A stretch of 32,000 nt of DNA from Aciduliprofundum boonei T469 (GTDB lineage Archaea; Thermoplasmatota; Thermoplasmata; Thermoplasmatales; Aciduliprofundaceae), in NCBI RefSeq assembly GCF_000025665.1, contig NC_013926.1, positions 1,020,001 through 1,052,000 of the forward strand, given 5' to 3'. Made by a program: the position numbers and the translations under genes. Shown piece by piece: positions 1-8,362 of this stretch. Position 1 is the stretch's first letter. Each line of letters opens with the position of its first letter. The notes under the pieces are model-generated. The model saw only the letters and a list, made by a program, of their open reading frames with translations. It was not told the DNA's origin and did not search any database.

Positions 1-42
1 GGAAATGATTAAAATTCCCACAATGAGAGCTTTTGCCTTCAT
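1..42 (-). CDS. 5' end (14 codons, MKAKALIVGILIIS...) of a further hydrophobic/signal-peptide protein gene that continues past the left window edge. It is the next member of the pilin-like operon.
   Basis: An ATG (plus-strand cat at 40-42) lies 3 nt after the stop of the upstream gene. The N-terminus is hydrophobic and the frame stays open to the edge. It is too short to classify. Confidence 0.3.
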   Translation of the reverse strand, partial: MKAKALIVGILIIS

Positions 43-45
43 TTT

Positions 46-1008
46 CTACCACGCCCCTACCAGCCATCCCGCTATAATCCACATAGCACCCAATACCGCT
101 ATGGCAACGATTATCGTCCCCACGAATGCGTTTAGAGATTTCTCTTTCGCCTTCTTTTTCTTGTCTGGGTCGCTGGAAAAGTAATTCACCGCCACATTCA
201 CCCAGAGTATAGATATGATTATTCCTCCCGTGATGGATAGGAGTTCCTGCATTCTCTCCACTTCATACTCCACATAAGTTTGATTTACCGCTCCCGTGTG
301 CCCAAACCAGCCACCGAGTATGCCAAAGAAACCTCCTCCACCGTGCCACGATGAACCTCCTCCCCACCAACTTCCTCCTCCACCGCTCCAACTACCACCT
401 CCGCCACTCCATCCACCTCCTCCCCACCATCCGCCAGAACCACCAGAACTGCTCTGCTTGTTGTAGGTGATGTTTAGATATACCCAATCTATGTAGAAAT
501 GCCCACTTGCCCAACCGCTACTCCAACCAGCTTTTACCTCTACCCTCTTTCCTACATACTTCTTGACAAAGCTCGTTATGTTCATAGTTCCGATTTCCCA
601 CTTGCCCCTTGTTGTAGGGAAATATTGCTTCGTTCCCGATATGTCTAAATAAATTCTCAGGCTTTGAGAGTAAAGAGAATTGTAATACTTCATGCTCAAA
701 GTTGCGGATTTTATCAGGGTTGAGTTTATGTCTGGCAAGGTTAAGTATTGATAGATGTAGGCATAAGCATATTCTACACCCTCGCCATAGTGGCTATGCG
801 TCCAAAAATACGCCTCTCCATTTTGGAAAACACATCCCACATAATACCCTTGATAATCATGATATCTTGCTACACTCCAATTCCCACCACCGCTATCAAA
901 GCTCGGATTTTTTAGAAACTGCTCCGTCACGATTTTTGCATGTGCCCCTCCAACCACAAGCATTCCGATTAAGAGCAGGGAAATTAGCAGGGTTGTAATC
1001 CTTTTCAC
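46..1008 (-). CDS. Secreted fusion protein. It has a Sec signal peptide (..GGAHA|K), a ~160-aa beta-rich CBM/jelly-roll-like domain, a Gly/Trp/Ser linker and a C-terminal VirB2/TrbC-like pilin hairpin.
   Basis: 320-codon ORF. The GTG start overlaps the upstream stop (GTGA) and is preceded by GGGGGTGAT. The C-terminus has two hydrophobic helices flanking FSSDPDKKKKAKEK, and this region is conserved in four neighbouring genes. The N-domain starts with an EQFLKNPSF..W motif typical of CBM4/9-like modules. Confidence 0.65.
   Translation of the reverse strand: MKRITTLLISLLLIGMLVVGGAHAKIVTEQFLKNPSFDSGGGNWSVARYHDYQGYYVGCVFQNGEAYFWTHSHYGEGVEYAYAYIYQYLTLPDINSTLIKSATLSMKYYNSLYSQSLRIYLDISGTKQYFPTTRGKWEIGTMNITSFVKKYVGKRVEVKAGWSSGWASGHFYIDWVYLNITYNKQSSSGGSGGWWGGGGWSGGGGSWSGGGGSWWGGGSSWHGGGGFFGILGGWFGHTGAVNQTYVEYEVERMQELLSITGGIIISILWVNVAVNYFSSDPDKKKKAKEKSLNAFVGTIIVAIAVLGAMWIIAGWLVGAW
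292..453 (-). repeat. Low-complexity Gly/Trp/Ser linker coding repeat (SGGSGGWWGGGGWSGGGGSWSGGGGSWWGGGSSWHGGGG...)
   Basis: The plus strand shows cctcc/ccacc/ccaac reiterations. The translated GGW/GGS units were read directly from the sequence. Confidence 0.9.
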
Positions 1009-2033
1009 AATATCACCCCCACTATGTCAAACGCTCCTACTGCCCATCCCGCAAGGAGCCATATAGTTCCCAGCACCGCCATGGCGATTATGAGCGTTGC
1101 GAGGAGAGCTTTTAGAGCGTTCTCTTTTGCCCGTGATTTCCTATCGGGGTCATCGGAGAAGAAATCCAGCGCCTCTTTCACCCAGAGAACACTTATCACA
1201 GCACCGCCAACTATGGCTAATGCCCTCTGGATGTTCCCCACCACATACTCCACATAGGTTGCGTTCCCAGAGGTATTACCTGCAAACCAAACTCCTCCAC
1301 TTCCATGCCAAAATCCTCCTCCTCCACTCCAACCGCTACCGCTTCCCCACCAGCCACCAGAGCCACCTCCACTCCAAGAGCCACCATTGCCCCACCAACC
1401 TCCGCTACCGCTTGATGATACCTTATAAGTTATCGTGAGAGAAACATTGTAAAGGGTTGTTTCCACATACTTAAGCTTAGAACCACTTACTATGTGCAAA
1501 CCTGCTAAAACATACAAGGATTTTCCAGCATATTGCTTTACAATATCCGTTAAATTTGCTGTGTATATCTTCTCATAAGCCATACCAAGTTGGCTTTCCC
1601 ATCCCTCATTTGAAACATTGTATCCATCCTTTACAGCCACCCAAACATATTCCTTTGTACTAGAATCTTCATCGGCTTCATAATCTAACGAAAAAGTTGC
1701 GTTTATTATATCTCCATTCGGGATGTTAATCTTTTGCCAAATATAGCCATACCCTTCACCTAAAGTTGTCTCATCATCACTTCTCGCTTGAACCACATCA
1801 TACCATCGTCCTTTGTTGGAGTAATGGTATAAAAGCCAATCTATGCGCGAATCTCCCGCATGTGTATAAGTCCAATAAGCGCTATTGTTCGAAGATGTGA
1901 AGGTATTATCTTGAACTAATTGCTCCGTTTTTATGGTCTCTGCACTCACTTTTCCAGAGGATAAGAGTATGGATGTCAAGATTAGTACCACGAAAGATAG
2001 TGCCTTTCTAGATTTTCCTTTTCCAGATTTCAT
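1005..2033 (-). CDS. Secreted fusion protein, paralogue 2: signal peptide, beta-rich lectin-like domain, Gly/Trp/Ser linker and VirB2/TrbC-like pilin hairpin.
   Basis: The ORF runs to 2066, but the ATG at 2033 (MKSGKGKSRKALSFVV...) follows GGAGGTGAT with a 6-nt spacer and begins a signal peptide (..KVSA|E). The C-terminus reads YVEY..IQRALAIVGGAVISVLWVKEALDFFSDDPDRKSRAKENALKALLATLIIAMAVLGTIWLLAGW. Confidence 0.65.
   Translation of the reverse strand: MKSGKGKSRKALSFVVLILTSILLSSGKVSAETIKTEQLVQDNTFTSSNNSAYWTYTHAGDSRIDWLLYHYSNKGRWYDVVQARSDDETTLGEGYGYIWQKINIPNGDIINATFSLDYEADEDSSTKEYVWVAVKDGYNVSNEGWESQLGMAYEKIYTANLTDIVKQYAGKSLYVLAGLHIVSGSKLKYVETTLYNVSLTITYKVSSSGSGGWWGNGGSWSGGGSGGWWGSGSGWSGGGGFWHGSGGVWFAGNTSGNATYVEYVVGNIQRALAIVGGAVISVLWVKEALDFFSDDPDRKSRAKENALKALLATLIIAMAVLGTIWLLAGWAVGAFDIVGVIL
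1266..1418 (-). repeat. Gly/Trp/Ser linker coding repeat (SSSGSGGWWGNGGSWSGGGSGGWWGSGSGWSGGGGFWHGSGGVW...)
   Basis: Read directly from the translation of paralogue 2. Confidence 0.9.
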
Positions 2034-2956
2034 ATCACAATCACCTCCGAAGCTCCAACTACCCAACCAGCTATCATCCAGATTGCTCCCAAAACTGCCA
2101 ATGCGATTATTAGCGTCCCCACAATAGCAAGGAGCGTGTCATCCCTTAACCTCATCCTTTTATCAGGGTCTCTGGAAAAGTAATCCGTTCCCACTTTAAC
2201 CCACAATATCGCTATCAATCCCGTTCCAACTATCGCCATAACTCTCTGGATGTTCGCAGCAACGAATTCTACATAGGTTTGATTTCCCCCTCCTTTTCCA
2301 AACCACAATCCGCCACCGCCGAACCAAGTTCCTCCTCCGTGCCACCAATATCCTCCTCCACTAACACTACTATCATAAATAACCTCCAAACTCAGAGAGG
2401 TTATGTTCATCCTAAAACTATAATCCCCGTTGGAAGTATCGTAATCTATGTATGCCCCGAACTTGAAAGTCAATTTTTGCCCCGTGTAATTTGATAAAAA
2501 GCTCGTTATGTTAATATTAACATAAGCACTTCCTCCATTCGTGGCAGCCACGGGTGCCCACGAAACCTCTTTCCATAACCAAACACCCGTAGAATTAACA
2601 AATCCTACAACATACCTCATGTTTATTTGGTCTATGAAGTGTATCGTGATGGTAGCATTTTCGATTTCATAATTTGGAACTTGTATCTGTTGCGAAATGA
2701 GGGCATAAGAGGGGTCCGTGTCCGAGCATTGAGCATTAAAGTTTGAGTGGTAAAAGTAAGCATAGCCATCTCCCAACCTTATTACCCAACTATCTCCATA
2801 AGGGCCTCCTTTTTCCGTGTCCCAATATTCGTAATTATCACTTGCTTTGAAATCTGAATCTTGAATTAATTGAGAATTCACCAATTCTCCACTAACATAA
2901 GGAACTTGTGAAACGATTAATCCCAAGATAACCATTACCAGCACCATCTTTCTCAT
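2030..2956 (-). CDS. Secreted fusion protein, paralogue 3: signal peptide, beta-rich lectin-like domain, a shorter Gly/Trp linker and VirB2/TrbC-like pilin hairpin.
   Basis: The ORF runs to 3070, but the ATG at 2956 (MRKMVLVMVILGLIV..VSG|E) starts a signal peptide and overlaps the upstream stop as ATGA. The C-terminus reads NQTYVEF..ILWVKVGTDYFSRDPDKRMRLRDDTLLAIVGTLIIALAVLGAIWMIAGW. Confidence 0.65.
   Translation of the reverse strand: MRKMVLVMVILGLIVSQVPYVSGELVNSQLIQDSDFKASDNYEYWDTEKGGPYGDSWVIRLGDGYAYFYHSNFNAQCSDTDPSYALISQQIQVPNYEIENATITIHFIDQINMRYVVGFVNSTGVWLWKEVSWAPVAATNGGSAYVNINITSFLSNYTGQKLTFKFGAYIDYDTSNGDYSFRMNITSLSLEVIYDSSVSGGGYWWHGGGTWFGGGGLWFGKGGGNQTYVEFVAANIQRVMAIVGTGLIAILWVKVGTDYFSRDPDKRMRLRDDTLLAIVGTLIIALAVLGAIWMIAGWVVGASEVIVI
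2285..2371 (-). repeat. Gly/Trp linker coding repeat (SSVSGGGYWWHGGGTWFGGGGLWFGKGGG)
   Basis: Read directly from the translation of paralogue 3. Confidence 0.9.
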
Positions 2957-3201
2957 CCCACAGCCCCCGTTAGCCATCCTGCAATCATCCACAACGCACC
3001 CAATACTGCCAGAGCAATTATTAGCGTGGCAACCACAGCTAAGAAGGTACCATTTCCGTGCCAACTCCAATACGCAAGGTGCTTCGCAAAGGTGCTATCC
3101 CTAACTATGTCTTCGGTTTGTGGGCTACTGCCCTCTGCCGTTATAGAAACAAAAGAAAGAGAGAGAACGAAGAAAGCCAACAGAGAGGTTGCCTTTCTCA
3201 T
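2953..3201 (-). CDS. 82-aa internally deleted paralogue. It keeps the signal peptide, the first ~20 aa of the beta domain, a WSWHGNGT linker remnant and only the second pilin helix. It may be a decaying gene or a minor subunit.
   Basis: Sequence: MRKATSLLAFFVLSLSFVSITA|EGSSPQTEDIVRDSTFAK..YWSWHGNGT..LAVVATLIIALAVLGALWMIAGWLTGA. The ATG directly follows the upstream TAA, the SD is weak, and the stop overlaps the next start (ATGA). Confidence 0.5.
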   Translation of the reverse strand: MRKATSLLAFFVLSLSFVSITAEGSSPQTEDIVRDSTFAKHLAYWSWHGNGTFLAVVATLIIALAVLGALWMIAGWLTGAVG

Positions 3202-3684
3202 TTACAAAGCCCACACTAGTAAGCTGTTTGGTAGGATTATCTGGGTTGCGCCAACCATCCAGCCAGCGATTGCCCAGATGGCTCCGAACACAGCCATTGC
3301 TACGAGGATTGTTCCTACGAGTGCCTTGATTGCGTCTTCCTTTGCCATTGCCTTTCTCTGTGGGTCATCGCTGAAGAAATTGATTGCCACTTTAACCCAT
3401 AGGATTGCTATGATTATACCGCCGATTATTCCAAGCAGTACGAACAGCTTTTGAGTTATGTTCGATATGTATTGTGAGCCGTTCGCTGCCTGTGCTGCGT
3501 TGCTGGTTGTGGCGTCCACGACTGCATAGTAGATGTTGCCTTGCATTATGTCCTGAACATACTCTATGTTCATCGTGTTTATCACTTCGGCAGATACGAA
3601 TCCGCCGAGGGCAAGAGCCATCAGGAAGGTTGCCAATACCAAGCTCCTTACCTTGTTGTCCTTCTTCTTCTCAAGCTTCTCCAT
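3202..3684 (-). CDS. Minimal VirB2/TrbC-like pilin candidate: signal peptide, a short N-region and a two-helix hairpin. It is the likely core subunit.
   Basis: 160 aa, with GGAGGTGAT 6 nt upstream of the ATG. The signal peptide reads ..GGFVSA|E. The hairpin reads LFVLLGIIGGIIIAILWVKVAINFFSDDPQRKAMAKEDAIKALVGTILVAMAVFGAIWAIAGW. The helix / (S/D)DPxxKxxAK loop / helix pattern matches my recollection of T4SS pilin families. Confidence 0.65.
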   Translation of the reverse strand: MEKLEKKKDNKVRSLVLATFLMALALGGFVSAEVINTMNIEYVQDIMQGNIYYAVVDATTSNAAQAANGSQYISNITQKLFVLLGIIGGIIIAILWVKVAINFFSDDPQRKAMAKEDAIKALVGTILVAMAVFGAIWAIAGWMVGATQIILPNSLLVWAL

Positions 3685-8223: not shown

Positions 8224-8224
8224 G

Positions 8225-8362
8225 TGGGGGCACTGGGATTCGAACCCAGGTCCGCGGGTCTCTCCTGAGGGTCAGCGCTCCAGTTATTCATCATCTTTCA
8301 GCTGACCCGCTGCTCATCATCTAACTGGAGCCCACCAGGATGCCTGACTACCCCATGCCCCC
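8225..8362 (-). tRNA. trnW: tRNA-Trp (anticodon CCA at 8328-8326) with a 65-nt intron (8324-8260) at the canonical 37/38 position. CCA is not encoded.
   Basis: Hand-folded. The acceptor is GGGGGCA/TGCCCCC, the D stem GGGT/ATCC and the anticodon stem GTGGG/CCCGC. The loop is CTCCAG|..|A and the T arm CTGGG-TTCGAAT-CCCAG. There is a BHB-like arrangement with central helix CTCC/GGAG and 3-nt bulges AG|T and AG|A. Confidence 0.9.
8272..8320 (-). ncRNA. Box C/D sRNA embedded in the tRNA-Trp intron. It is predicted to guide 2'-O-methylation of C34 and C39 of its own tRNA.
   Basis: Box C is AUGAUGA (8320-8314), followed by a 12-nt guide and D' CUGA (8301-8298). Box C' is AUGAUGA (8294-8288), followed by a 12-nt guide and D CUGA (8275-8272). 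The D guide pairs with GCTCCAGTTA, and the N+5 rule gives C34. The D' guide pairs with GACCCGC, and N+5 gives C39. Confidence 0.85.

Follow-up and report, generated by a model that had tools for sequence, protein, structure and literature searches.

VirB2-class pilin paralogues with lectin-like ectodomains in a probable integrative and conjugative element of Aciduliprofundum boonei

Introduction

Conjugative pilins are viewed as minimal helical hairpins of ~7 kDa, with adhesion being left to separate proteins such as VirB5, PrgB, and TraN. What, then, is to be made of a row of genes in the archaeon Aciduliprofundum boonei T469 which code for pilin-like hairpins, several of them extended by large extracellular domains? 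This row occupies positions 1-3684 of the stretch of 32,000 nucleotides analyzed here (contig NC_013926.1, positions 1,020,001 to 1,052,000; in the following "the window"). An earlier reading of the DNA letters (the original prediction) had described it as a tandem array of five VirB2/TrbC-like pilin paralogues, three of them with lectin-like ectodomains. We consider it probable, if far from certain, that the array is the pilin and adhesin block of a mating-pair formation (MPF) operon, that this operon belongs to an integrative and conjugative element (ICE) next to a gene for tRNA-Trp, and that the fused paralogues display recipient-binding domains. The window itself is archaeal according to its open reading frame (ORF) translations, which include rpoB/A'/A'', aRF1, Cdc48, RuBisCO-like, and Elp3-like genes, and the 320-aa protein encoded in it has 100% identity with a database protein of Ca. 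Aciduliprofundum boonei.

Results

A coupled array of paralogues which end in a common hairpin

An ORF check confirmed the five minus-strand genes of the array, which code for proteins of 160, 82, 308, 342, and 320 amino acids (aa), together with the beginning of a sixth gene at position 42 (405 aa); coordinates are listed in Table 1. The array is a run of translationally coupled paralogues. Consecutive genes are joined at TAAATG (3201-3206), ATGA (2953-2956 and 2030-2033), and GTGA (1005-1008), and Shine-Dalgarno-like sites precede the starts at 3684 (AGGAGGTGA, a strong site), 2033 (GGAGGTGA), and 1008 (GGGGGTGA). Genes, junctions, and sites were found as originally predicted.

The module of ~80 aa at the end of these proteins consists, in this order, of an N-x-T sequon, the motif YVE(Y/F)..(I/M)Q, helix 1 running to ILWV(K/N), the loop FS.DP(D/Q).K..AKE, and helix 2 with the pattern GT.I(I/V)A.AV.GA.W.IAGW.VGA. 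It is complete in the 160-, 308-, 342-, and 320-aa proteins, each of which is found by a hidden Markov model (HMM) built from the module with E = 1e-41 to 1e-42, so that the module is repeated far beyond chance. Over the hairpin, sequence identity to the 160-aa protein is 42-54% for the fusions and 34% for the module of the 405-aa protein. The module had originally been assigned to all five genes and had been given the motif YVE(Y/F)..IQ throughout. This holds for the four proteins named above but not for the 82-aa ORF, which retains helix 2 only, and the YVE motif occurs in the fusions but not in the 160-aa protein.

The 82-aa ORF is composed of a signal peptide, ~20 residues from the start of an N-terminal domain (EDIVRDSTF...YWSW), and helix 2; the module HMM covers its positions 52-81 only (E = 8e-10). 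Its signal peptide and its C-terminus match an intact fusion of 339 aa (P0022) which occupies the equivalent place in a sister element on contig L003. We thus consider the ORF to be a remnant left by an internal deletion.

Hydropathy analysis revealed a signal peptide and two transmembrane (TM) helices in every intact paralogue. The predicted cleavage motifs are of the A-x-A type (VSA|E, VSG|E, and AHA|K), and sequons are confined to segments which are predicted to be outside. The predicted topology places the N-terminal domain outside, followed by helix 1, a charged loop inside, helix 2, and the C-terminus outside. N-domains which can be glycosylated would therefore be exposed on the cell exterior. 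A type IV pilin processed by a prepilin peptidase was ruled out by the signal peptides, which are of the Sec/signal peptidase I (SPase-I) kind, having A-x-A sites and a hydrophobic core of considerable length, and do not belong to class III.

Membership of the hairpin in the T4SS_pilin family

The 160-aa protein scores above the gathering score of Pfam family PF18895 (T4SS_pilin; 26.6 bits), with 34.9 bits for the whole protein and 36.6 bits for the hairpin alone. This agrees with its original classification as a plain pilin. The hairpins of the 320-aa protein (25.4 bits) and the 342-aa protein (22.4 bits) stay just below the gathering score. The latter hairpin also matches, below threshold, T4SS_CagC (21.1 bits), which we take to be the family of the VirB2 homologue from H. 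pylori. The 308-, 405-, and 82-aa proteins have no Pfam pilin match of their own.

A profile search among 1.84 billion representative proteins detected 49 relatives at E <= 1e-3. When 24 short members were aligned, 19 of them matched PF18895 individually and two matched PF04956 (TrbC/VirB2; best E = 6.4e-6), and membership in the VirB2 class is thus supported by sequence. The similarity to VirB2-class pilins on which the original prediction depended was therefore obtained. Weak matches of the hairpin include the pilin-like family of Mycoplasma ICEs (NF045849) and, of a spurious type caused by hydrophobic helices, Colicin_V, CrgA, and CyoD. An AlphaFold2 (AF2) model of the 160-aa protein has helices at residues 62-103 and 108-150 with a predicted local distance difference test (pLDDT) score of 80-91. 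We consider this protein to be a plain VirB2-class pilin and the candidate for a major subunit.

The proposed kinship with the archaeal pilins CedA1 and TedC was not borne out. A sequence search of the PDB with hairpin profiles (A2, A5) returned noise only, without any pilin and without a CedA1 or TedC chain at E <= 10, and no Ced pilin model of NCBIfam was matched by the hairpins. No fold match of the hairpin to the solved conjugative pilins (TraA, VirB2, CedA1, and TedC) was obtained.

Lectin-like domains in three of the paralogues

The 308-, 342-, and 320-aa proteins share the order signal peptide, beta-sandwich, Gly/Trp/Ser linker, and hairpin. An AF2 model (m06e18e416369) was computed for the 320-aa protein from an alignment of 13 sequences. 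The beta-sandwich (residues 25-185) has a pLDDT of ~90, the linker (187-243) is predicted to be disordered with values below 35, and the two-helix hairpin is at 62-70. The domain layout of the 308-aa protein follows from its alignment with this modelled paralogue.

When the N-domain of the 320-aa protein was compared to the PDB by Foldseek, the best match was TmCBM61 (2xon; E = 2.5e-6, TM-score 0.64). Further matches with E < 1e-3 are to the carbohydrate-binding modules (CBMs) CBM11, CBM6, and CBM15, to the carbohydrate-binding domain of BcsB, and to soybean agglutinin, a representative of the legume lectins; a phage tail fibre is also among the PDB matches. In a viral structure library, tail fibres and a carbohydrate-binding domain of the CenC-like type were matched at E ~1e-5, and minor tail proteins were matched as well. 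At the level of the fold, the model thus supports a lectin/CBM-type jelly roll and, at this level, the lectin-like ectodomains proposed for the three fusions. Searches for CBM families gave no Pfam or NCBIfam match at E <= 10 for the N-domains. Because no CBM family was matched by sequence, the term lectin/CBM-like refers to the fold, not to a family or an activity, and the more specific assignment to the CBM4/9 type is not supported by sequence.

The N-domains diverge much more than the membrane part: among the paralogues in the window the hairpins are 52-58% identical versus 22-26% for the N-domains. In the 405-aa protein, a large, repetitive, beta-rich N-domain is joined to the hairpin (module HMM E = 1e-30) without a flexible linker. 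A profile of this N-domain obtained nothing significant from the PDB; a polygalacturonase (beta-helix) at E = 0.46 is not relied on.

A type IV secretion operon beyond the edge of the window

The same proteins recur on two further contigs that reach left of the window, one of them from a metagenome-assembled genome (MAG; contig L001). This allowed us to follow the operon, which encodes, in this order, a protein with Big_7 repeats, the 160-aa pilin, the fusions with the remnant, and proteins of 405, 422, 246, 136, and 566 aa, the last being an ATPase.

The 566-aa ATPase is a VirB4 protein. It matches the NCBIfam model conju_CD1110 with 210 bits (E = 6.7e-62, model positions 182-734 of 752), as well as VirB4_plasma, TraC, VirB4_CagE, and the VirB4 structure 4AG5 (E = 1.6e-8), and reaches only 27 bits with the NCBIfam model CedD. 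Homologues are encoded on 2,242 plasmids, 1,668 of which are predicted to be conjugative. The 246-aa protein has two TM helices and a soluble part whose match is to the N-terminal portion of VirB4 models (NF045975, E = 4e-5). Its profile found nothing significant in the PDB. Such a VirB4-N-type protein corresponds to what is called TrsD in PMC12102498. VirB4 is thereby split (L001, 10666-13507), the two parts being separated by the 136-aa protein, which is a small membrane protein; this arrangement is kept in the related loci L003, L004, and L006.

The 422-aa protein, encoded directly after the 405-aa gene, has ~7 TM helices. It matched no family and no VirB6 sequence, a profile search against the PDB included, so that the label "VirB6-like" describes its position and topology only. 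With a VirB4 ATPase, a TrsD-like protein, and this polytopic protein in the operon, the secretion and assembly genes which had been expected to the left of the window are present.

On the opposite strand after the ATPase gene (L001, 13663-17665) follow genes for an N6/N4 DNA methyltransferase (852 aa) that is extended considerably at its N-terminus, for a protein of 400 aa, and for a helix-turn-helix protein of 82 aa. This block is probably a restriction-modification (R-M) cargo module.

Evidence for a mobile element

A gene for tRNA-Trp(CCA), which was missed by ARAGORN with default settings and found with the intron option (-i), has its 3' end directed toward the cluster of type IV secretion system (T4SS) genes, and contig L001 breaks inside this gene at window position 8237. 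Both observations make it a candidate attachment site and right-hand boundary and suggest that the ICE uses tRNA-Trp for integration. A repeat of the tRNA 3' end, as expected for an attachment site, was not detected in the 10 kb to the left of the window, and the sequence covered showed no far boundary of the element. An intron with a C/D-box small RNA (sRNA) is the classic euryarchaeal arrangement for tRNA-Trp.

A single archaeal ICE, that of A. boonei, has been reported, with MOB and the type IV coupling protein (T4CP) encoded by genes 1034-1035 and VirB4 by gene 1075, thus 40 genes apart, and with VirB4 covering 0.51 of its profile (Guglielmini et al., 2011). This partial coverage fits the split VirB4 described above, and it is very likely that the locus analyzed here is the same ICE.

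Between operon and tRNA gene, a 448-aa protein is encoded which matches no Pfam or NCBIfam family. Its gene is flanked by small ORFs (79 and 81 aa on L001), and the sister element has instead a gene for 386 aa on the opposite strand. It is a candidate for an element-specific regulator or replication protein.

The first operon gene codes for a 744-aa protein with a signal peptide, five immunoglobulin (Ig)-like Big_7 repeats, 25 N-x-S/T sequons, one TM helix (606-636), and a charged cytoplasmic tail of ~100 aa. The gene stops 8 nt ahead of the pilin start, and an orthologue in the equivalent position of the sister element is 69% identical. Within the mating apparatus, this protein may act in adhesion or in signalling across the membrane.

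Table 1. Features of the pilin array and its surroundings. Coordinates refer to the window unless a contig is named.
Feature	Coordinates	Strand	Description
Plain VirB2-class pilin, 160 aa	3202..3684	-	Signal peptide (VSA|EV), short variable N-terminal region, NGS/NIT sequons, helix-loop-helix hairpin
Deletion remnant of lectin-fused pilin, 82 aa	2953..3201	-	Partial module HMM match
Fused pilin, 308 aa	2030..2956	-	Signal peptide, CBM-like beta-sandwich, short Gly/Trp linker, hairpin (HMM E = 7.5e-42)
Fused pilin, 342 aa	1005..2033	-	Signal peptide, CBM-like beta-sandwich, long Gly/Trp/Ser linker, hairpin (HMM E = 1e-42)
Fused pilin, 320 aa	46..1008	-	Signal peptide, beta-sandwich 25-185, disordered Gly/Trp/Ser linker 187-243, hairpin 245-319
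Sixth gene, 405 aa (start: ATG at 42)	1..42, rest left of the window (L001 8196-9413)	-	Ends in hairpin
Ig-repeat surface protein, 744 aa	3692..5926	-	First operon gene; Pfam Big_7, E = 2.9e-29
Protein of 448 aa	6336..7682	-	Between operon and tRNA gene
tRNA-Trp(CCA)	8224..8362	-	65-nt intron holding C/D-box sRNA; Rfam sR3 47.6 bits (gathering score 41); ARAGORN -i

The sister element and more distant relatives

In the sister element (contigs L003/L008), the ATPase is 91% identical, and R-M genes, an integrase-like gene, AbiEii, and a coupling protein of the VirD4 type come after the same operon. The R-M set differs at the same place, consisting of a C5 methylase and an HhH-GPD protein. Over the two elements, the machinery is 71-91% identical versus 34-53% for the fusions, which also differ in copy number. 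The 405-aa protein has a 73% identical orthologue in L003.

VirB4 relatives with 43-93% identity occur in DHVE2/Aciduliprofundum and other Thermoplasmata MAGs. More distant ones are found in Woesearchaeota/Nanoarchaeota (~27%) and among the CD1110-family ATPases of Patescibacteria (26-29%). Short PF18895-type pilins are encoded upstream of VirB4 in DPANN loci and in one DHVE2 locus. A large protein ending in the hairpin (405-597 aa) is encoded beside a polytopic protein in all DHVE2/Thermoplasmata relatives examined and is the sole hairpin protein which all related elements have in common. Fusions of the lectin type were detected only in Aciduliprofundum-like sequences, with 11 homologues in 5.8 billion clusters. 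Among the DHVE2 MAGs, the element is distributed patchily and its cargo is variable.

In the distant relatives L004 and L006, the large hairpin protein (582-597 aa) is encoded next to the VirB6-like gene, and the stretch covered has no plain pilin. The gene ahead of the large hairpin protein (L004, 1240-1965; L006, 3232-3849) codes for a beta-rich protein of small size which is secreted and has a Gly/Ser linker. Its C-terminus forms a single TM anchor with basic residues behind it, an anchor of conventional type and thus unlike the hairpin from Aciduliprofundum.

Four metagenomic proteins (P0035, P0040, P0044, and P0048) carry 5-13 tandem copies of the pilin hairpin in one polypeptide, some of them together with Cys-rich C-terminal domains. 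Each repeated unit starts with a lead-in that contains Cys, continues with helix 1 and the loop S-E-D-P..R..AK, and closes with helix 2. We know of no description of VirB2-like hairpins which are covalently concatenated.

Among the plasmids in PLSDB, neither the T4SS module (megablast) nor the pilin (tblastn) had a match. A haloarchaeal plasmid with a VirB4 homologue was without a detectable hairpin pilin.

Discussion

Comparison with known systems

Tandem arrays of 2-11 divergent VirB2-like pilins (PF18895/PF04956) next to an MPF-FATA-like virB4 have been reported for Patescibacteria (Wang et al., 2023, as presented in PMC12102498 and PMC12857230). The array from A. boonei resembles them in the T4SS_pilin family and in its tandem, divergent, Sec-dependent paralogues beside a FATA-lineage pair of TrsD and VirB4. 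It differs in being archaeal and in being located on a probable ICE with relaxase and T4CP. In addition, most paralogues from A. boonei bear extracellular N-terminal domains of 160-330 aa, whereas the arrays in Patescibacteria consist of small pilins for which extra domains are not mentioned in the accounts given by PMC12102498 and PMC12857230.

With the archaeal Ced and Ted systems (CedA1 and TedC; Beltran et al., 2023, PMC9905601), the locus shares the single membrane, a two-helix VirB2-like pilin with probable glycosylation, a signal peptide of the SPase-I kind (which TedC has, too), an adjoining 7-TM VirB6-like protein, and a VirB4-like ATPase. However, the pilins from A. boonei are without detectable similarity to CedA1 or TedC, they are borne by an element rather than domesticated, and they occur as multiple paralogues and fusions. 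Ced and Ted import DNA, whereas the system from A. boonei probably has the T4CP and MOB partners that are typical of export.

The CD1110/Mbov_0397-type VirB4 and the TrsD-like VirB4-N protein are features shared with the MPF-FATA systems of Firmicutes and Tenericutes (Trs of pGO1, Prg of pCF10, and Mbov_0395-0397 of the Mycoplasma ICE), and the hairpin weakly matches the family of Mbov_0395, a "pilin-like conjugal transfer protein". Gram-positive FATA systems, which are held to lack pili, employ LPxTG adhesins (PrgB) as proteins in their own right, whereas an adhesin-like domain and a pilin-like hairpin are part of one polypeptide in A. boonei. A likeness to the minor pilins VirB5/TraC concerns the proposed role only: an adhesive minor component that reaches the pilus via VirB6, with the large hairpin gene being located just before the VirB6-like gene. 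VirB5 has no hairpin of the VirB2 type, and the comparison is functional only; the hairpin proteins from A. boonei are related to VirB5 neither by sequence nor by fold.

Function of the array

If the array is indeed the pilin and adhesin block of a conjugation apparatus, all paralogues would enter a single pool of membrane-inserted pilins and have one VirB6/VirB4 machinery in common. The 160-aa protein would be the major subunit of a conjugative pilus which, like those of Ced and Ted, would contain lipid. The fused paralogues would be minor subunits, placed along the filament or at its tip or remaining at its base. Having entered assembly via the conserved hairpin, they would expose glycan-binding domains which diversify rapidly and to which the Gly/Trp/Ser segments serve as flexible tethers. 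These N-domains may recognize the glycosylated S-layer of recipients, and a single protein would then merge the roles of VirB2 and of an adhesin such as VirB5 or PrgB. For the linker-less 405-aa protein, which is encoded beside the VirB6-like gene, a function as tip or base component is conceivable. That archaeal VirB2-like proteins do form pili, and that TedC has an SPase-I signal peptide as have the paralogues described here, is known from the Ced and Ted systems (PMC9905601).

Several points weigh against a pilus with displayed adhesins. The filament proposed for Aciduliprofundum is a prediction from its genes, and descriptions of MPF-FATA systems in monoderm Firmicutes portray them as lacking pili (PMC12102498, PMC12857230). 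The pattern in L004 and L006 argues that a nearby gene for a plain pilin is not needed for the hairpin to work. Finally, the VirB4 reported by Guglielmini et al. (2011) has been equated with the ATPase described here by inference and not by coordinates. Some of these points feed a different reading, which we judge to be somewhat unlikely: that the hairpin is a membrane anchor or docking module which does not build an extended pilus, that the fusions are adhesins arranged around the T4SS channel where they stabilize cell contact, and that the 160-aa protein is part of the channel or of a stalk. The use of adhesins instead of pili by Firmicutes (PMC12102498, PMC12857230), the 582-597-aa protein next to VirB6 as the sole hairpin protein found in distant relatives, the absence of a flexible linker from the 405-aa protein, and the lack of a structural match between hairpin and solved pilins all speak for it. 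However, the conservation of the hairpin exceeds what a simple anchor would need, the invariant W/G/A residues of helix 2 and the loop motif being common to the fusions and the plain pilin. VirB2-like proteins of archaea polymerize in both Ced and Ted (PMC9905601), the related pilin arrays of Patescibacteria are suspected to form pili (PMC12857230), and long disordered tethers suit a display from a crowded filament surface.

The kind of apparatus and even the nature of the hairpin may be questioned as well. A DNA-import apparatus of the Ced/Ted type, domesticated by the host chromosome and not part of a mobile element, would account for the minimal set of pilin, VirB6-like protein, and VirB4 and for the weak match of the ATPase to CedD. 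We rejected such a system, which we consider very improbable, on the basis of the ATPase family scores (210 bits to CD1110 but 27 bits to CedD) and of the mobile-element context: the locus adjoins a tRNA gene and has R-M genes at its flank, a T4CP is encoded in the sister element together with AbiEii and an integrase-like protein, an ICE with relaxase and T4CP has been called in the genome (Guglielmini et al., 2011), and occurrence among DHVE2 MAGs is patchy with variable cargo. Hardly any credence can be given to the view that the hairpin belongs to an unrelated family of two-helix membrane anchors and that its T4SS_pilin match is compositional noise. Hydrophobic helices do yield spurious weak matches (Colicin_V, CrgA, CyoD), and three of the hairpins lack a Pfam match of their own, but the 160-aa protein passes the PF18895 gathering score, 19 of the 24 aligned members match this family independently and two match TrbC/VirB2, NF045849 from Mycoplasma ICEs is weakly matched, and hairpin genes recur as neighbours of VirB4 in loci from DHVE2, Thermoplasmata, and DPANN.

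The reading as a pilin and adhesin block can be extended to a more specific scenario, which we put forward as speculative and consider rather unlikely. Here, the fusions co-polymerize with the plain pilin into a "bottle-brush" pilus with interchangeable tethered lectin domains at its surface or tip, and the 405-597-aa protein is a tip or nucleating subunit analogous to VirB5. A further consequence would be that the FATA-lineage T4SS of archaea and Patescibacteria had VirB2-like pilins from the beginning.

Implications

The PF18895 family, an ICE in A. boonei, and tandem arrays of VirB2-like pilins in Patescibacteria are already known (PMC12102498, PMC12857230). Full-text literature searches revealed no description of VirB2-class hairpins to which extracellular domains, CBM-like or larger, are fused, in line with the original prediction that no pilus of this class built from domain-fused pilins had been described, and no description of PF18895 pilins in an archaeal FATA-type ICE.

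Whether monoderm or FATA-type T4SS ancestrally had pilins was left open by Quinonero-Coronel et al. (2025; PMC12102498). Because PF18895 pilins adjoin TrsD-VirB4 in a probable archaeal ICE and are also found in DPANN loci, our data suggest that the FATA-lineage T4SS which Patescibacteria have in common with archaea brought the pilins along, and that they were not co-opted later within Patescibacteria.

A. boonei T469 is a cultured strain, and a direct isolation of filaments and their analysis by cryo-EM could therefore be tried. A bottle-brush filament would, if confirmed, be the first natural T4SS pilus which displays additional domains, and N-terminal display on a lipid-containing pilus would then provide a ready-made scaffold from a heat- and acid-adapted organism. 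The repeated fusion of the hairpin to fast-evolving, putatively glycan-binding domains suggests that this lineage may solve the problem of recipient recognition in a different way.

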